Positions 23,901 to 30,553 of a DNA stretch of 64,000 nt are shown here, one piece after another. This stretch comes from Sedimentisphaerales bacterium (GTDB lineage: Bacteria > Planctomycetota > Phycisphaerae > Sedimentisphaerales > SM23-30), in contig CAXXFK010000028.1 in NCBI GenBank assembly GCA_963663965.2, positions 256,001-320,000 of the forward strand, written 5' to 3'. The notes under the pieces were generated by a model that saw only the letters and a list, made by a program, of their open reading frames with translations, did no database searches and was not told the DNA's origin. Numbering within the stretch: the first letter of the stretch is position 1; each line of letters starts with the position of its first letter. Position numbers and translations under genes: made by a program.

Positions 23901-24140
23901 TTCATGGCCCAGCATGGCATGATAACGCTGGTAGCAGTCCTTGAGCGTACGGCCCCAGGCATGATGAACGCCCATCGGATTATTAGCCGTGATTGGGCCG
24001 TCCAAAAATGACCATTTCGGCTTACCGGCGTTCTTTTCACGCAATTTATCGAATGAATTATTCGCTTTCCACCAGTCCAGCACCTGGTGTTCCAGTTCGG
24101 TATGATTACAGGATGAAGGGACCTGCTTGAACATCAACAA
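20973..24140 (-). CDS. ileS: Isoleucyl-tRNA synthetase, type 2 (IleRS2)
   Basis: DGPITAN, GFDCQGL, WTTTPWTL, GIVHIAP, DWMISKKRFWG and LSNWYVRRNRRRFW, with a long IleRS2-type C-terminus (EGYARDMVRHIQ). Confidence 0.95.
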   Translation of the reverse strand: MLMFKQVPSSCNHTELEHQVLDWWKANNSFDKLREKNAGKPKWSFLDGPITANNPMGVHHAWGRTLKDCYQRYHAMLGHELRYQNGFDCQGLWVEVEVEKEMGYKTKADIQRAGLEDFINTCKARVDKFSKIQTEQSIRLGYWMDWNNSYYTISDENNYTIWSFLKKCHERGLIYKGLDAMPWCPRCETGISEQERREGYKTVEDMAVFVKLPLKNKPGEYLLVWTTTPWTLAANVAAAVNPELKYARVRQGEEVYYLAETLTTILKEKGKFEVEATLAGSELVGWEYEGPFDDLPVVDQTFAEAGYTHRVIPWKDISAEEGVGIVHIAPGCGKEDFDLGKELKLPTLVPIDDTGTYFSGFGFLTGKFAKDVDEEVVQYLRERGFYYKKEKYVHEYPHCWRCHTPLLFRTVDEWYINMDWRDEIKEVVKQIRWIPGWGREQELNWLENMGDWMISKKRFWGLALPIFECECGWFDVIGSREELQERCVEGWEQFDGNSPHRPWVDHIRIECPECGQQAKRIPDVGNPWLDAGIVPYSTTHYNSDRDYWAKWIPADLVLECFPGQFRNWFYALLAMSTMMENIPPFKTLLGHALVRDEKGREMHKSWGNAIWFDEAVEKMGADIMRWAYCAQNPTNNLNFGYTIGDQLKRRVFGTWWNVYSFFVNYARLDGFDPMGKQVAYDDLQDIDRWLLSKLQVLIKTANESMSDINVAGVIQCADDFIERLSNWYVRRNRRRFWRPKNASDTDKLAAYQTLYRVLVDLSKVLAPITPFICEDMYQNLVRSYQPDAPESVHHCDYPQVDDALMNEALAEEMDMVADVVSRTLSVREAQQIRVRQPLAKLTVIAGDKEAETTRKYQDHILDELNIKELAFAGAADGLVSYVIKPNFKTMGPKFGKDMKLIGAALGKADASTIVAQVNNGQMVVLESDGNRWELAPEDLQVDTKCPDNLVVAAGNPTLILDVEITDALRREGYARDMVRHIQQTRKDTGLEIQNRITVIFQSDDPELIATIDEYRSYICSETLCDAITAETISGDNGVEVEFGDKKMKLIVTKVI

Positions 24141-24322
24141 TCTCCTAAGTCTATTTAAAATAAAAAGATAAAAATGTTTGCCAAAAGCATGGCGCTTACG
24201 GCATAATACGGCTTTCAGGCCGAATTCAATTAATAGCCCATCATTATGACCAGAATGACCATAAATTTCAAGTAAATGAAGGCTAAATCATTTGTTGGTA
24301 TTAAATTATGGTGTAAGGCTTA

Positions 24323-25126
24323 TTGAGGATATCAATGGATATGAGCGAAGCTGAAAACAAAACAGGGATGGAGCAAGACAGTACTTCAATGCCAAACAAA
24401 CCGGAGAAAGTGCCTCTGATTTATACGCTCTATATAAAATCCTTAGCCGCCTGCTATTTAGGGTTTTTGATAATATTTTTTCTGCCATTTTTGACAGGCA
24501 TTAAGATACTCGAGCCTGTACTTTCACATATTGCTGTTGCGATTTTCTTTCTCTGGATCAGTATCTCTTTGTTCCATTTTGTTTTTTTTCTGCTGACTTT
24601 CTTGGCAAAATCGGTAAAGAATCAGAAGATTAAATTTTGGATGCGACTCCTTTCATTTTTTTATCTATTTATTATTCTCTCGATAATAATCCCTGCGCTC
24701 AAACCTGCACGCCAGTCGACACATACAAACTTTTGCCAGAGTAAACTCAGCCAAATTCACAAGGCGTTGTCAGAGTATTCCAAAGATCATGATGGTTGCT
24801 TACCCACGACAAATAAATTCTATTCTGACATAACCGCCAACGATCTTGAAGAGAGCTTTTTTCGCTGCACCCGGGTGGCTGATGATATTCCATTACCCCA
24901 TTATGCGTTAAATCAATATATCTCAGGCAAACGGCTTAAGGATCTTCCGCCCGATATCGTGTTATGTTACGAATGTATTCCTATTTCGGATCTCTCCCAT
25001 AACCAGTTTGACTTGATCGACCAAAGACGACATTACAGCGGTAGCAATATCCTGTTTGCCAATGGTAAGGTTGAGCTTGTCGAACCGGATGAAATTGAAA
25101 AATTAGTTTGGGAAATACCGGAATAA
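24323..25126 (+). CDS. Membrane protein with pseudopilin-like/H-X9-DG-type C-terminal domain (paralog 1)
   Basis: Three TM helices, then PALKPARQ...CQSKLSQI...YSKDHDG.LP...YALN...RRHYSGSNILFANGKVE. Confidence 0.7.
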   Translation: MRISMDMSEAENKTGMEQDSTSMPNKPEKVPLIYTLYIKSLAACYLGFLIIFFLPFLTGIKILEPVLSHIAVAIFFLWISISLFHFVFFLLTFLAKSVKNQKIKFWMRLLSFFYLFIILSIIIPALKPARQSTHTNFCQSKLSQIHKALSEYSKDHDGCLPTTNKFYSDITANDLEESFFRCTRVADDIPLPHYALNQYISGKRLKDLPPDIVLCYECIPISDLSHNQFDLIDQRRHYSGSNILFANGKVELVEPDEIEKLVWEIPE

Positions 25127-25205
25127 TAGCTTTTGTGAATATACTGATATGTGATATCTGGTTGCTAATTGATTCAGTTAAGGTTTATGGAAAAAGGTTA
25201 ATGCT

Positions 25206-26021
25206 ATGGGCCGTCATGATATGAATAACAAGGCGAACGTAGGCACAATGGATACAGTAAAGGAAGCCGACTCGCATCCCAGGACGTTCTTCCACGCTCT
25301 TTATGCTTGGTCATTTTTTATTGCCTTGTGTCTGCTGATTCTTTATTTAATACTGATACCCGTTTCAAGCCGGCTTATCAAACCTGCTAAAGTTTTAGAT
25401 CAGGCCACCAGAATCTATCATACGATTGAAAAGGTCGTATTTTTTGTTTGCCTGCTTAGTATTTTTATCCATTTTATATCGATTCCATTGGCTTATCTGA
25501 CCAGGTCGTTTGGCAACAGAAAAATGCGAAGCTGGTCTTGGTTTACTTCTCTGGTATTTGTATTTCTGGCCATCGATATTATTGTTCCGGCCAGGGATTA
25601 TGGGCGTGTTTTTCCTGAAATTAACGATTGTCAATTTAATCTACAACTTATTGACAAAGCTTTAATTCAATATGCCGACGACCATAAGGGGTGCATTCCG
25701 GCCAGTAATGAATTTTATAAGGCACTTTGCCCGGAATATCTCGAATCTCACTGCTTTCAGTGCCCCTCCGTTTCGAGTGATTTGACATTGCCTCATTATG
25801 CTTTGAATCAAAATGTTTCCGACCTGAAACTCAATGAACTTCCCTGTGATATCGTGTTATGCTATGAGCTGGATCCAGTGCCTTTTCACCCCCATAACCA
25901 GTTTGACTTAATCGACCAAAGACGACATTGCAGCGGCAGCAATATCCTGTTTGCCAATGGAAAGATTGAACTTATCGAACCGGATATGATCGAAAAATTG
26001 CGCTGGCAGTTGCCTGAATAA
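25206..26021 (+). CDS. Membrane protein with pseudopilin-like/H-X9-DG-type C-terminal domain (paralog 2)
   Basis: Same architecture: CQFNLQLI...YADDHKG.IP...RRHCSGSNILFANGKIE. Confidence 0.7.
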   Translation: MGRHDMNNKANVGTMDTVKEADSHPRTFFHALYAWSFFIALCLLILYLILIPVSSRLIKPAKVLDQATRIYHTIEKVVFFVCLLSIFIHFISIPLAYLTRSFGNRKMRSWSWFTSLVFVFLAIDIIVPARDYGRVFPEINDCQFNLQLIDKALIQYADDHKGCIPASNEFYKALCPEYLESHCFQCPSVSSDLTLPHYALNQNVSDLKLNELPCDIVLCYELDPVPFHPHNQFDLIDQRRHCSGSNILFANGKIELIEPDMIEKLRWQLPE

Positions 26022-26174
26022 TGGATTTTGCCAGTCTAATAGGTATATGATAGATTAGCTGATAAGCGGATTCCTGTGTGGTTTATTGGAGAAAAGACGA
26101 TACTGAAGCTGATGGCGACAGTCTTAATATGGCAAGCCTGCATGTTGAGAAAACATAAGGATATTGGAGTCATA

Positions 26175-26537
26175 ATGGATGAAAATCAAAACAATGAGGA
26201 TTTTGAACAGTCAGACCTGTCCGATTCGGTTGAAATGGAACCCCAGACAGGTGGGTATAAATGGATAGGAATTACCGGTCTGGTCCTGTTGGTTGGAATT
26301 TTATTGATCTTTTTAGTCCAGGCCATTCGAGCGGATATGCTTTCCAGCTATCTGGGCTTAACGATTATCGGCGCTCTGACCGGATTATTTTTCCTGGCAA
26401 TATATTATATTACTATTTATCCGCTGCTTTGTTGGGTCGGTCTCATTAGAAGACGTAATGTTCACTATGGGTTTTGGTTTATTTATATTTTTCTTTATTT
26501 AATTCTGATTTCTCAGTTAATGCCAAATGTGAATTAA
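26175..26537 (+). CDS. Hypothetical membrane protein
   Basis: ATG after a GGAG RBS (MDENQNNE...), three hydrophobic segments. Confidence 0.55.
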   Translation: MDENQNNEDFEQSDLSDSVEMEPQTGGYKWIGITGLVLLVGILLIFLVQAIRADMLSSYLGLTIIGALTGLFFLAIYYITIYPLLCWVGLIRRRNVHYGFWFIYIFLYLILISQLMPNVN

Positions 26538-26653
26538 GATTGTATTATAGAGATCCTTTCAATCTTCAGAGATTCTCAGAAAATAAACAATGGCAAATTC
26601 CAGACTGAAGCGTCGATATATGTTCGACGGTTCTATTCAGTTGCATTAGTGGC

Positions 26654-27661
26654 CTAGCCATTCCTGGTATTGATAAGATTGACCACCATTTTGACGATCA
26701 TGTCTTTTTCCTGCGGTTTGCTTTCAGCTACCATCAATATCAACGCGACCAGGGTATTATCGGCCAGGCGTCGGTCACCGTTCGTACGATACAAATAGCG
26801 ATTTTTGTCCAGAAACCACAAGAACATAAACGCCGCAATGCGTTTGTTGCCGTCGATAAATGGATGGTTACGAACCAGGAAATAGAGCAAATGGGCCGCT
26901 TTTTCTTCAATGCTGGGATAGAGTTCCCGGCCATCGAAGGTCTGGAATATCGATTTCAGCGAGCCCTGGAAACTATCGTCTTTTTCCCGCCCGAACAGAT
27001 CACCGGCCTGATATTCCGCCCGTAACTGTTCAATGGCTGCTAAGGCTTCGCGATATTCAAGCGGGCATGCGGTTTGTTCACTGACCCCGGTAATCGTCAA
27101 ACGCTGATAATCATACGCGTCAATCAAATCCAGGCCATAGGAATAATCGCGAATGATCCGGACCAGGTCGCCGATTTCGCCCGGAAGCAGGCTGGGGGTA
27201 TTGACTATCCGTTCCAGCAGATCAACCGCTCCCTGCAATTCTCGTAATTTCTCCTGCGTTTCCCGCAAGCGATTCTGGTTGAGAGTATATCCCTCCACCA
27301 GGTGCTGACGCAGAACATTGGTCGCCCAGATACGAAATTGGGTGCCGCGAATCGAATTTACACGGTAACCTACTGATATGATGGCATCAAGGTTGAAATA
27401 TTCAACCTGATAGGTTTTTCCATCTGCGGCAGTTGTTGCATTTTTTGCAACAACTGAAGAACGATTTAGTTCGCCAGCACGGAAAATATTTCTTAAGTGT
27501 CTGGAAATAACGGATTTATCCCTTTGAAAAAGCTCGGTGATCTGATTGAGAGTCAGCCAGACCGTATCCTGCCGGAGTCTGACTTCCAACCCGGGCCGGC
27601 CATCTTCAGCCTGATAAATAATAATATCGGTTGTGGTTGCCATGGTATAGTATTCTAACAT
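26654..27661 (-). CDS. RhuM-family virulence protein fused to Fic/Doc domain
   Basis: N-terminal TVWLT..QI.ELF...YFNLDAIISVGYRVNS.RGTQFRIWA and Fic motif HPFIDGNKR. Confidence 0.9.
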   Translation of the reverse strand: MLEYYTMATTTDIIIYQAEDGRPGLEVRLRQDTVWLTLNQITELFQRDKSVISRHLRNIFRAGELNRSSVVAKNATTAADGKTYQVEYFNLDAIISVGYRVNSIRGTQFRIWATNVLRQHLVEGYTLNQNRLRETQEKLRELQGAVDLLERIVNTPSLLPGEIGDLVRIIRDYSYGLDLIDAYDYQRLTITGVSEQTACPLEYREALAAIEQLRAEYQAGDLFGREKDDSFQGSLKSIFQTFDGRELYPSIEEKAAHLLYFLVRNHPFIDGNKRIAAFMFLWFLDKNRYLYRTNGDRRLADNTLVALILMVAESKPQEKDMIVKMVVNLINTRNG

Positions 27662-27765: not shown

Positions 27766-28869
27766 TTAGAGCAGATTGACCACACGGTCAGTCAGACCCT
27801 TTTCACCCAGTACCACGTTCAATTTGGTATTGGCGGCGATCTTTTCCAGCGCTTCCAGCTCACGCATCCGCATCAACACCGGGTTGTTTTCCAGCATCTT
27901 GGCGGTGTTCATCTGCGACCGCATGGCGGCCGTTTCCTCACGTCGCGTGATCAGGTTGGCTTCGGCGGCTTTCTTCGCCTCGGTCACCTTGTTAAGCAGG
28001 TTCTTCATCTCGCCGGGCAAAATGATATCGCGTACCCCCAGCGAGGTGATCCGCATACCCAGTTCCCCGGCGCGATCCTGCAGTTGGTCGGTCAATTCAC
28101 CGGCCAGTGCGTTTTTGTCCGCCAGCAGGCTGTCCAGGTCGCGGCTGCCCACCATCTCGCGCAGCGCCATCTGGGCCGCGCGATACAGCGACTGTTTGCT
28201 GTCTTCCGCGCCGGCCACATAACGGACCGGGTCGGTAACAACATAGTTTACCAGCGCGTTCAAACGCAGCGTCACCTTGTCGGCGGTCATGATGTCCTGG
28301 CCGCTGATTTCGAGGGTCTGTTCGCCGGTGTTTACCTGGAAGATACGTACCTTCCGGGTATTCTTCCAGAAGAGATAACATCCCGCGTTCAGCGTGTCGG
28401 CGTATTGGCCGTCCAGGTACAGAACGCCGCGATGATCTTCATTGATTTCATATTCGCCCAGGAAGTCACGCGCTCCCGGCGACTTCAGCAAAACACTTAA
28501 GTCGCTGCGGTTCACGCGCACCTCGTTGGCGTTGACAATCTCAACGCGCACCTGTCGCTGGGTGGTCCACAGCGCGTACAGACCGCCGGCCACAATCCGG
28601 TCGAATCGGCCGTCAATCCAGATCAGCGCCCGTTCGTGGTCCTGTAAGTCCAGTACCCGGATCTGGTTGTCCAGCAGGCCGGACTTCACCAACAGGTCCA
28701 GGTCCTTGTGTTTCAGCCACGGATCGCGCATGTCCACCACATCCACTCGAACACGGTCGAGCAGGTCGAACAGCCAGTATTTGCCCCTGGTCAGGACCGA
28801 TACCAGTTCGCCATCAACGAACTTCAGTCCCGCCTGATAGCTGCGAATGTGAATTCGGGTTAGTGCCAT
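27766..28869 (-). CDS. SPFH/band-7 protein, slipin family (N-terminal repeats)
   Basis: Three repeats of ERAL/GL...DG...L..G.Y..W, then SGQDIMTADKVTLRLN, GVRDIILPGEMK and NLITRREETAAMRSQMNTAKMLENNP. AAAGGA RBS. Confidence 0.9.
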   Translation of the reverse strand: MALTRIHIRSYQAGLKFVDGELVSVLTRGKYWLFDLLDRVRVDVVDMRDPWLKHKDLDLLVKSGLLDNQIRVLDLQDHERALIWIDGRFDRIVAGGLYALWTTQRQVRVEIVNANEVRVNRSDLSVLLKSPGARDFLGEYEINEDHRGVLYLDGQYADTLNAGCYLFWKNTRKVRIFQVNTGEQTLEISGQDIMTADKVTLRLNALVNYVVTDPVRYVAGAEDSKQSLYRAAQMALREMVGSRDLDSLLADKNALAGELTDQLQDRAGELGMRITSLGVRDIILPGEMKNLLNKVTEAKKAAEANLITRREETAAMRSQMNTAKMLENNPVLMRMRELEALEKIAANTKLNVVLGEKGLTDRVVNLL

Positions 28870-29024
28870 AGTCTGGTCCTTTCAATAGAGGTTAACAATT
28901 CAAAACAAAAAGCTCATGAGCGTTACAATTTCATTTTATTTCAATTAACAGGATAGTCATGGGGCACGCCGTTGTTTTAGCGACATCCAGGAGAGTCAGT
29001 CAGAATCTATACTCTCCAGAGACA

Positions 29025-29285
29025 GAACAATTCCACTGCCACAACACCTTAAGCGGGGAACGCTTAAGCCGATACTGTTACGGCGGTCGATCCTGTCGCC
29101 TGGCCGCGGTTTACACGCTTTTTCCCCCGCGTGCAAACCGCCGGCCATTGGACAGTCCGATCCATCGCGGTTGTATCGGCGTTATCCGCCTTCCGCAAGG
29201 CTTTCGGTCCTGCCGCCGGCTGTCTTTGTCGCGGCGGAAGAATTTTCGCCACAACGCCGACAGCCGGCCGACAGTAAAATTGTCC
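29025..29285 (-). ncRNA. Candidate ~260-nt multibranched structured RNA (may extend 28990-29320)
   Basis: 16-bp closing helix GGACAAUUUUACUGUC/GGCAGUGGAAUUGUUC with four G-U pairs that form only on the minus strand. It encloses GCCGGCUGUC/GACAGCCGGC, GCCUU/AAGGC, GCCGAUAC/GUAUCGGC, GCGGUUUGCACGC/GCGUGUAAACCGC and CUUAAGCG/CGCUUAAG. Confidence 0.7.
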
Positions 29286-29323
29286 TTCTCCTTCGAGTTC
29301 AAGGAGGCCCTTGACAGGGCCGG

Positions 29324-29397
29324 TGGGTGGGGATACAGGAGTCGAACCTGCGGCATCCAGTTTCAAGCTGGCGCTCTACCAGTTGAGCTAATCCCAG
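29324..29397 (-). ncRNA. tRNA-like RNA, 4-bp anticodon stem, loop CUUGAAA (nominal anticodon UGA), encoded CCA
   Basis: CTGGGAT TA GCTC AACTGGTA GAGC G CCAG CTTGAAA CTGG ATGCC GCAGG TTCGACT CCTGT ATCCCCA C CCA. Pairs 1:72 and 2:71 are mismatched. Confidence 0.8.
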
Positions 29398-29425
29398 GGA
29401 GTTGGCACAACGGGCCAACCGGGTG

Positions 29426-29495
29426 TTATCGATACGGGATTCGAACCCGTGTTTGCAGTAACGAACTGCCGCTCTACCTGCTGAGCTAATCAAAA
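29426..29495 (-). ncRNA. tRNA-like RNA, shortened anticodon arm, loop UUCGUUA (nominal anticodon CGU)
   Basis: TTTTGAT TA GCTC AGCAGGTA GAGC G GCAG TTCGTTA CTGC AAAC ACGGG TTCGAAT CCCGT ATCGATA A. No encoded CCA. Confidence 0.8.
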
Positions 29496-29624
29496 CCAAC
29501 CCTTTGGTGTCCACCATCGTTAGAATCCGTCGCACGGAACATGGCAGACGAAACGGACGATCCGTCATCGCCATGCCGCCGGCCCGGCAGACAATATCCT
29601 GTTTATTTGTCAAATAGCTTATCA

Positions 29625-29696
29625 TAGCTCCGACAGGATTCGAACCTGTACCTTGCGGATTATGAGTCCGCCGCTCTGCCCTTGAGCTACGGAGCG
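29625..29696 (-). tRNA. tRNA with CAU anticodon (Met or Ile2), no encoded CCA
   Basis: CGCTCCG TA GCTC AAGGGCA GAGC G GCGGA CTCATAA TCCGC AAGGT ACAGG TTCGAAT CCTGT CGGAGCT A. Full cloverleaf with a C1:U72 mismatch. Confidence 0.85.
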
Positions 29697-29702
29697 GTAG
29701 TG

Positions 29703-29726
29703 ACGGGGCGGATCGCTCCGCCCCGT
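29703..29726 (-). other. GC-rich hairpin without U-tract (processing/stabilising stem) between ORF and tRNA
   Basis: ACGGGGCGGA-gcga-TCCGCCCCGT lies 6 nt upstream of the tRNA 5' end. Confidence 0.6.
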
Positions 29727-29731
29727 GGTGA

Positions 29732-30553
29732 TCAATCCAGAAACGCCACGTTTTCGGTCATTACTTCCCGGTTGCTTAAGACCCGGTGCCACGAGTCTAA
29801 CACAACCGTCTTATGATCCGAATGACGAATGGTTCCTTTTACCAGTACCTCCGGATTACGTCGCATCACGCGCCAGCGGTGATTTCTGGTTTCCGGAACG
29901 TTCATCATCAAATCGCGATATTCATCTTCACTGACCCCGTTAGGGCGCATCTGGCTGACATACACCGTCTCGCCGCCGGTACGCGTCAGATATTCCGCGA
30001 CATGCGGTTTACCGCCGCGCATCAGCGGTTCATTATGAAACACGGTCAATGCGTTGACGCGTACATCCTCAACCGGCACAAAGAACCATTCACCCTGACG
30101 GATAAAACCATCGTTGTGCCGTTTCTGCCAGTTCTTATGGCGAACCTTGCGCGCGTGCTGCGCGTCAATCACGCCGGCCGGCTTCAGCGATTCCTTCGCC
30201 TGCCAGACATTGGTGCAGCGCGAGTTGACTCCCGCCACAAACCAGTGGCGTTCGTCGTGGCCGCACAGAAATTTCTGCCAAGTGGTAGAAGTTTTGGCGC
30301 TGGCTCCAATATCGCGGCTATCCACCAGCAACACCAGGTGCCGGTCCTGCCGGTCCGTATGCAGAACCGTCAGTTTCAGGTCAGGCACGGCATAGCGGAA
30401 TTCAAATAGCTCGCCTTTGCGGTCCTGGCCGATATCGATCGCGTAGCGCCCGAATCGGCGGTATCGGGCCGGGCGTTCGCTCTGGTCGTCAAACCGGATA
30501 CGCGCGCCCATCCGTTCAAACTGGTTAACAATCGGTAAAGTATCCATAATCAA
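29732..30553 (-). CDS. Uncharacterised His/Arg-rich protein
   Basis: 273 aa with GAGGA RBS. Motifs FLCGHDERHWFVAG, RQGEWFFVP, GGKPH and KGTIRHSDHKTVVL..WHRV. Confidence 0.8.
   Translation of the reverse strand: MIMDTLPIVNQFERMGARIRFDDQSERPARYRRFGRYAIDIGQDRKGELFEFRYAVPDLKLTVLHTDRQDRHLVLLVDSRDIGASAKTSTTWQKFLCGHDERHWFVAGVNSRCTNVWQAKESLKPAGVIDAQHARKVRHKNWQKRHNDGFIRQGEWFFVPVEDVRVNALTVFHNEPLMRGGKPHVAEYLTRTGGETVYVSQMRPNGVSEDEYRDLMMNVPETRNHRWRVMRRNPEVLVKGTIRHSDHKTVVLDSWHRVLSNREVMTENVAFLD

Follow-up and report, generated by a model that had tools for sequence, protein, structure and literature searches.

Band 7-associated tRNA-like genes with shortened anticodon arms ahead of a soluble slipin gene in a Sedimentisphaerales bacterium

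Introduction

What is the role of tRNA-like genes whose anticodon arms measure 15 nucleotides (nt) instead of the usual 17? The question is raised by a 64,000-nt stretch of DNA from a Sedimentisphaerales bacterium (contig CAXXFK010000028.1, positions 256,001 to 320,000; hereafter the window, in whose coordinates all features are given), which belongs to a 7.2-Mb genome (G000) that is 94.6% complete. On its minus strand the window carries two adjacent genes of this kind, a distal one at 29425..29495 (copy 1) and a proximal one at 29324..29397 (copy 2), followed by a folded leader RNA and by the gene of a soluble SPFH/Band_7 protein, the slipin (27766..28869). A preliminary description of the pair, made from the nucleotide sequence, had seen in it elbow-preserving mimics of tRNA and had named Y RNAs, band 7-associated tRNA-like adaptors and non-standard decoders as possible identities. 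Here we identify the two genes, by their position and by their loop and acceptor features, as band 7-associated tRNAs (b7a-tRNAs). We further consider it probable (about 0.72) that they are non-decoding, tRNA-derived elbow mimics that form the head of a structured RNA for a soluble, cage-type slipin, acting as a ribonucleoprotein (RNP) scaffold or decoy.

b7a-tRNAs were predicted by Burroughs and Aravind (2016), as cited in a later preprint (Wang et al., 2018; bioRxiv 10.1101/312249), and no mention of the name was found in the searched literature beyond that preprint. The pairing of b7a-tRNA and Band-7 genes is thus a ten-year-old prediction that spans phyla and is not represented in Rfam. 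To this prediction the window adds a case from a sequenced organism with a stand-alone module that would be easy to test (sequencing runs X1 and X2 appear to be of its own DNA), a first, weak sign of the mimic pair in an RNA library, natural variants that are one anticodon-stem pair short and argue that it is the elbow that counts, and further support for the view that a conserved structured RNA of much greater length starts with the mimics.

Two cloverleaf RNAs with 15-nt anticodon arms

ARAGORN labels copy 2 as tRNA-Ser(tga) and copy 1 as tRNA-Thr(cgt), calling both as tRNA genes where the preliminary description had expected pseudogenes or undetermined calls, and the two reach 43.5 and 49.0 bits, respectively, with the Rfam tRNA model (RF00005; gathering score 29 bits). 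The anatomy reported in that description is borne out by the sequence of both copies. The D arms are intact (TAGCTCA..GGTAGAGC, as RNA UAGCUCA..GGUAGAGC), as are the T arms (GGTTCGA.TCC, as RNA GGUUCGA.UCC). The anticodon arm reads CCAG-CTTGAAA-CTGG in copy 2 and GCAG-TTCGTTA-CTGC in copy 1, i.e., 15 nt in each; the latter can be drawn with four base pairs (bp) and a loop of 7 nt or with 5 bp and a 5-nt loop. When drawn with 4-bp stems, both copies show seven-nt loops (CUUGAAA, with the triplet UGA, in copy 2; UUCGUUA, with CGU, in copy 1) that have U33 and a purine at position 37. The acceptor tops are frayed: the proximal copy has five acceptor pairs with two mismatches on top, and in the distal copy U2 and U71 are mismatched and U4.G69 is a wobble pair. 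Each acceptor strand is followed by a C-rich tail (CACCC) and then by a small 3' hairpin. The hairpin after copy 1 (29401..29419, minus strand; GTTGGC-CCGTTGT-GCCAAC) was read from the sequence and is present in the centroid fold, and that after copy 2 (29306..29321, minus strand; GGCCCT-GTCA-AGGGCC, preceded by the tail CACCCACC) was likewise read from the sequence and is present in both the minimum free energy (MFE) and the centroid folds.

These features depart from those of a canonical elongator tRNA, which has a 17-nt anticodon arm, a 7-bp acceptor stem and, for serine, a long variable arm: both copies have 15-nt arms and mismatched acceptor tops, and the variable region of the UGA copy measures 5 nt, so that the long variable arm of tRNA-Ser is missing, as had been noted. 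The window genome holds 51 tRNA genes called by ARAGORN, among which are the real tRNA-Ser(UGA), with 86 nt and a long variable arm, and the real tRNA-Thr(CGU), with 75 nt, each encoded on another contig.

The compensatory stem differences that had been noted between the copies amount to four changes that keep pairing, at positions 27-43 (C-G vs G-C), 51-63 (A-U vs G-C), 3-70 (G-C vs U-A) and 4-69 (G-C vs U.G). Outside the acceptor top, helix-breaking changes are found in neither copy, and all four helices are intact. The MFE fold of copy 1 is the cloverleaf (z = -2.15), and in copy 2 the cloverleaf has an energy of -20.3 kcal/mol against -20.7 kcal/mol for the MFE structure; the z-score of the whole 261-nt mimic region (-0.41) is not informative.

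The short arms are not a product of assembly. In a metatranscriptome from a different study (run X3), a 252-nt contig, for which no strand is given, matches 29290..29540 without substitutions, the one difference being an additional G after 29328, and it spans both copies and the start of the folded leader domain; because it carries the same sequence, the 15-nt arms are real and an assembly error is excluded. This contig makes up the whole coverage by run X3 of the interval 27766-29760, and the lack of contigs over the rest carries no weight as evidence. The extra G adds a C to the 3' acceptor strand of the proximal mimic; it may reflect strain variation or an error at low depth.

Conserved position upstream of slipin genes and relaxed anticodon loops

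The next gene on the same strand after the pair is that of the slipin, and the proximal copy sits 455 nt before it (-528..-455), in the same position as its counterparts in homologous loci. Such loci were collected by scanning one genome per species; 574 of 580 candidate stretches were confirmed as relatives and 80 loci were kept, and over these and the window ARAGORN called 461 tRNA genes. A covariance model (R1) was built from 47 tRNA-like sequences located upstream of slipin genes. At a cut-off of E <= 1e-15, R1 finds a homologous tRNA-like gene on the same strand ahead of the slipin gene in 70 of the 75 orthologous loci for which >700 nt of upstream DNA was available, and in 64 of these 70 it lies within 760 nt. 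Thus, among the identities proposed earlier, the band 7-associated one is the one that the neighbourhood supports. In most loci the tRNA-like gene lies ~400-600 nt before the slipin start and its 'anticodon' varies by locus, and the distance from mimic to start codon is conserved in length (median -454 nt, 71 loci).

The window copies share the D arm, the T arm and the stem pattern with the homologues with which they align. In the MAFFT alignment of the 47 sequences, 96.5% of the cells pair and both partners have changed in 14 of 19 pairs, values that none of 500 shuffles reached, with slid controls pairing at 29-44%. All five anticodon-stem pairs covary; no variation is seen in the D stem or in the G-G/C-C core of the T stem. 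The D and T loops are nearly invariant across phyla, and the window copies match the invariant columns of the family. The picture of an elbow-preserving mimic, in which the D and T arms are held and the anticodon loop is unconstrained, therefore fits the family as a whole.

Arm and loop statistics were drawn from 71 syntenic homologues of the window mimics. Their anticodon arms measure 17 nt in 60 cases, 16 nt in 8, 18 nt in 3 and 15 nt in none, and when 96 tRNA-like sequences of the window and the 80 related loci are aligned by covariance model, the 15-nt arm occurs only in the two window copies (16 nt in 9 rows, 17 nt in 82, 18 nt in 3). The homologues in the slipin-bearing genomes of the same family (n = 3) also have normal arms. 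The proposal that the shared 2-nt shortening is a selected, defining feature is consequently not supported: the 15-nt arm is private to the window genome, the extreme of a relaxed region and not a family trait. The preliminary description had also associated homologues having normal 17-nt arms with an assembly error or recent decay; such homologues are indeed the rule, but the first explanation is excluded by the X3 contig and the second is unlikely (see below). Close relatives that could date the 15-nt arm were not found in the collections, where the best slipin match is 60-63% identical.

The anticodon loop itself varies widely. Twenty-nine different triplets occur among the 60 seven-nt loops, with A34 in 17 of them; U33 is kept in 43 of these 60 loops, as against 50 of the 51 ARAGORN-called tRNAs of the window genome; and loops of 6 or 8 nt are present in 11 of the 71 homologues. 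The anticodon is therefore not conserved. At the acceptor end, at least 6 of the 7 pairs form in only 21 of the 71 homologues. Taken as sequence patterns, these data point to selection on the elbow and the stems, and to a loop and an acceptor end that are probably not used as in decoding, which makes non-standard decoding by the two window copies, as had been envisaged for them, very unlikely.

After the acceptor strand, the b7a genes of many loci (L005, L033, L040, L059 and L072 among them) have a recurring 3' trailer, ACCGCAGGC or CACCA(A/C), which in some loci seems to extend or interrupt the acceptor helix; the window copies have CACCC at that place.

A long folded leader RNA between the mimics and the slipin gene

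The small hairpin after copy 2 is part of a folded domain of far greater size. The leader comprises a strongly folded part at 29040..29303 (minus strand), recognised by fold and profile match and made up of a long closing stem, a 5' hairpin and a long arm, and a remainder at 28870..29039 (minus strand) that runs up to the slipin start codon and includes a sigma-70-like site at 28933-28960, the only one found by a consensus scan in which 0.6 were expected. The order of the unit is thus mimic 1, hairpin, mimic 2, hairpin, a folded domain of ~260 nt, ~170 nt of further leader and the slipin open reading frame (ORF).

The segment 28940-29290 of the minus strand folds at -170.9 kcal/mol, as compared with -120.9 +/- 5.6 kcal/mol for 100 dinucleotide shuffles (z = -8.88), and none of the 100 shuffles folds as well. 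In the matching spacers of 65 other loci the median z-score, a rough value obtained with 8 shuffles per locus, is -4.0, and it is at or below -3 in 48 of the 65. Thirty spacers align as a conserved multi-helix RNA with invariant blocks, in which both partners vary in 28 of the 40 predicted pairs. A first nhmmer profile built from these 30 loci gave no genome-wide match to the window and E = 0.073 in the spacer set. After two iterations with other loci only, the top genome-wide match of the profile was 29040-29303 on the minus strand (E = 0.0013, profile positions 40-308), followed by a next match at E = 3.7. Of the consensus pairs that could be assessed in the window leader, 27 of 35 are standard, and slid controls reach up to 26 of 35. 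RNAalifold yielded no structure on the iterated local alignment, and blastn of the window spacer against the 76 other spacers gave no match. On the strength of the profile match and the fold, the window leader at 29040-29303 appears to be a diverged homologue of a conserved slipin leader RNA, a domain that is absent from Rfam.

A sigma-54 promoter motif was not enriched in the spacers (3 of 77, vs 3.8 in shuffles). In one related locus (L044:3426-3920), a tandem GTAGGCA repeat is inserted after the conserved domain.

The slipin protein

The slipin has 367 amino acids (aa) and matches Pfam Band_7 with E = 3.7e-30. Among 8000 scored candidates, 4598 homologues were found at E <= 0.001, mostly in Planctomycetota, the best non-self match being 60-62% identical. 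The window protein keeps every invariant residue of a 16-sequence alignment, and its gene is intact. No membrane helix is predicted in it. The AlphaFold2 (AF2) model (pLDDT 81.3) consists of three five-stranded beta units (residues 1-180), an SPFH core and a long helix. Structurally it is matched best by stomatin and HflK/C, which cover residues ~113-353 (Foldseek E = 2.6e-15; Z = 18.4 for the stomatin SPFH domain), and only the chains of the major vault protein (MVP) align from residue ~5 to ~330-357 of the model, with Z = 10-12. The gene is sporadic: of 60 related genomes only 3 have it, all of them among the 24 of the same family, and it is missing from the 36 that represent other families of the order. 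Only 3 slipin loci lie on viral contigs, which indicates that slipin is not a typical phage gene.

Possible function and alternative explanations

How could these elements work together? The mimics keep the tRNA elbow, which the D and T arms form, as well as pairing in the anticodon stem, and are free to vary in the anticodon loop and the acceptor end. The RNA would be made with or beside the slipin mRNA and might be processed from it, and its tRNA-shaped modules would be recognised by their elbow, whether by the slipin oligomer, by tRNA-handling enzymes or by both. The resulting RNP could then take part, as scaffold or decoy, in how the cell responds to tRNA damage and to a block of translation, much as has been proposed for Ro60-YrlA beside RtcB. 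The anticodon stems shorter by one base pair would represent a tolerated, lineage-specific change; if such stems are tolerated, the distance from the elbow to the anticodon loop should be irrelevant for function.

A more far-reaching version would have the slipin form a vault-like cytoplasmic cage with the whole ~500-nt transcript, mimics and folded domain together, as its dedicated RNA, the elbows of which would capture, shelter or present tRNAs and tRNA-repair enzymes during translational stress or nuclease attack; we regard this version as speculative and rather improbable. In Planctomycetota the unit is physically joined to long 'spare' tRNA arrays, and under this version the 15-nt arms would be a natural experiment in which the elbow alone is read, irrespective of its distance from the anticodon.

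Several observations weigh against the elbow-mimic account. The preprint itself describes b7a-tRNA as lacking experimental validation, and this holds for its existence as an RNA as well as for Band-7 binding (bioRxiv 10.1101/312249). R1 was tried and dropped as a discriminator: it scores ordinary tRNAs of the window genome at up to 72.7 bits, compared with 70.3 bits for copy 2, 61.7 bits for copy 1 and 69.0 bits for a third tRNA-like gene nearby (see below). As R1 is unable to separate b7a-tRNAs from tRNAs, membership is judged from position and from the features of loop and acceptor. An NCCA-like end is encoded by 16 of the 71 homologues, so that some family members could still be charged. 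The MFE fold of copy 2 is not the cloverleaf (z = -0.40). The copies are 73% identical to each other and up to 82% identical to homologues in other phyla; because they are no closer mutually than to distant homologues, these identities give no date for the duplication or for the shared 15-nt arm. The RNA trace consists of one contig with a depth of 3.1, contigs show neither strand nor ends, and DNA carry-over is possible. Additionally, the window genome encodes RtcB on contig C15 and the window lies on C28, i.e., the two are unlinked, and RtcA or RtcR-CARF was not found in the window genome. The link to RNA repair therefore rests on analogy with other loci. Finally, the Anabaena slipin gene alr0740 (see below) may belong to another subfamily.

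The main rival holds that the RNA acts in cis only. The mimics and the folded domain would be parts of the slipin mRNA leader, in which cutting by RNase P/Z or a conformational switch would set slipin mRNA levels or translation according to tRNA-processing capacity or ribosome stalling, and any released mimics would be functionless. This possibility, to which we give a minor share, agrees with the fixed order on one strand, the length-conserved gap across the 71 loci and the conserved folded domain that extends towards the start codon and is so pronounced in the window leader. It leaves unexplained, however, why the D and T loops are near-invariant across phyla, a degree of conservation that exceeds the needs of a processing signal, and the mimic is often duplicated, as in the window and in its nearest relative, L001. 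The promoter-like site inside the leader, although weak, also speaks against it. The cis-acting leader and the RNP are mutually compatible, and the present data fit both.

Decay is unlikely. If the pair consisted of pseudo-tRNAs drifting without function, they would be remnants of a long array by the slipin gene and their short arms would be damage, in line with the arrays of 10 to 27 same-strand tRNA genes upstream of slipin in related loci, as compared with the three genes that the window keeps, with the 15-nt arm being found in none of the 71 homologues, with the missing Rtc partners at the window locus and with the non-cloverleaf MFE fold of copy 2. Every helix in both copies has nonetheless been kept by paired changes, which is what makes decay improbable; besides, the D and T loop sequences match invariant family columns, the slipin gene is intact and its leader domain is kept, and the same sequence is present in an RNA library. 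Still less credible is that the two are unusual but working tRNAs, either spare or stress-induced decoders or suppressors of frameshifts or agents of recoding, that function despite a 4-bp stem. Such decoders would be expected to retain the acceptor pairs that are mismatched here and, in the UGA copy, the long variable arm, which seryl-tRNA synthetase needs in tRNA-Ser. The triplets at orthologous positions are as variable as described above, with A34 frequent and loops of 6 or 8 nt in some homologues, and normal isoacceptors are encoded elsewhere in the genome. What favours decoding is the seven-nt loops with U33 and a purine at position 37 that result when 4-bp stems are drawn, the NCCA-like ends of some homologues, and the report that in Anabaena 23 of 26 array tRNAs are charged in vivo (PMC8421152).

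Relation to known systems

The window unit resembles the b7a-tRNA module as outlined in the preprint, in that a gene strongly resembling a tRNA lies directly upstream of a Band-7 gene (bioRxiv 10.1101/312249) and in that the module stands beside RtcB, RtcA and RtcR in some related loci. It differs in that the gene is tandem-duplicated, that both arms measure 15 nt and that it is unlinked to RtcB; moreover, the ~260-nt folded domain that follows the mimics in the window is not mentioned in the preprint's passage on b7a-tRNA. Among 81 sequences (the 80 loci and the window), RtcB is found within 4 kb in 8, the nearest relative L001 included, which makes the adjacency common but not universal for the b7a family in this set; RtcA clusters with the unit in 5 loci and RtcR in 7.

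Another example is YrlA, which works with Ro60 (Rsr). YrlA is a tRNA-elbow mimic without a working anticodon whose gene neighbours that of a protein forming rings or cages and, in many genomes, that of RtcB (Chen et al., 2014, PMC4201824; Wang et al., 2018), and it differs in that its anticodon arm is replaced by a Ro-binding stem, whereas b7a-tRNAs keep a paired anticodon stem. The suggestion that the window pair might itself be a Y RNA is not supported: the Rfam YrlA model reaches 31.1 bits, against a threshold of 69 bits, in a match (29347-29472) that spans both genes, and a TROVE/Ro60 gene (PF05731) gave no match in the 94.6% complete window genome.

The vault particle offers a structural parallel. 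Both MVP and the slipin model arrange beta repeats, then an SPFH-like shoulder and then a long helix, and a small structured RNA is the partner of the one and the proposed partner of the other. The differences are that the slipin has 367 aa vs ~890 and no TEP1 or PARP4 partners, that the Z score is dominated by the SPFH part, and that RNA binding is putative for the vault shoulder and the slipin alike. The resemblance between the modelled slipin and MVP is one of architecture, not of membership.

The unit is also related to the long tRNA arrays (L-arrays, trn operon). In 16 of the 80 loci, at least 10 same-strand tRNA genes (up to 27) lie directly upstream of the slipin gene (L004, L015, L072, L067, L035, L076 and others), with the b7a gene as the last member of the array. 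An HNH endonuclease gene of ~198 aa is embedded in the arrays of 10 loci (L020:2079-2675 and nine others; Pfam HNH E = 8e-15). In Anabaena, translational stress is reported to induce a long tRNA array together with an HNH gene and rtcB (PMC8421152), and the array, the HNH gene, rtcB and a slipin gene are de-repressed in a mutant of the regulator TrcR (PMC10272220; PMC8421152), in which the slipin gene alr0740 is 42-fold up (PMC10272220). The join of module, array and HNH gene in Planctomycetota matches this TrcR regulon and points to a single translational-stress system; in that case, soluble SPFH proteins would gain an RNA-linked role quite unlike their usual one as membrane scaffolds. Slipin, SPFH and a join between array and slipin or b7a go unmentioned in the main text of the array paper (PMC8421152). 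The array tRNAs are mostly charged decoders with conserved anticodons, whereas the b7a position has a free loop; in addition, the window has no array and only one extra tRNA-like gene with a CAU loop. In the arrays the order ...His, Trp, Gln, Arg, Arg, Arg, Cys and then the b7a gene recurs, and the penultimate gene is almost always the tRNA-Cys(gca), whose D arm is unusual. The HNH gene of the arrays matches the HNH gene reported beside cyanobacterial long arrays.

Other genes around the unit

The extra tRNA-like gene lies at 29625..29696 on the minus strand and is called tRNA-Met(cat) by ARAGORN (66.2 bits with the Rfam tRNA model; for R1 see above). It has a normal 17-nt anticodon arm, a C1.U72 mismatch and a 6-bp acceptor stem, and it encodes no CCA. 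It is the fifth CAT tRNA of the window genome, besides four others, and CAT loops are also present in 4 homologues from other loci. It could belong to the b7a type as well, be left over from a tRNA array or serve as a real spare tRNA. Between it and the b7a pair, a consensus scan indicated a terminator-like hairpin (29556..29572, minus strand).

Directly upstream, on the same strand, lies a gene for a 273-aa protein (29732..30553), homologues of which are located upstream of slipin in L027, where the gene is frameshifted, and in L058 (clustering). This protein has no match in Pfam, NCBIfam or PADLOC, and its Atlas neighbours are clusters without names, some of them with phage members. PADLOC gave no defence-family match for the slipin itself. 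Directly downstream of the slipin, the minus strand encodes a RhuM and Fic/Doc fusion protein (26654-27661) that matches the PADLOC candidate PDC-S23 (E = 1.5e-133). Beyond it, between the Fic gene and the isoleucyl-tRNA synthetase gene, the stretch 24001-26600 has a GC content of 0.40 vs ~0.50 and contains three plus-strand ORFs (267, 271 and 153 aa) without Pfam or NCBIfam matches. The slipin neighbours in the window look accessory, and this low-GC stretch looks like acquired DNA.

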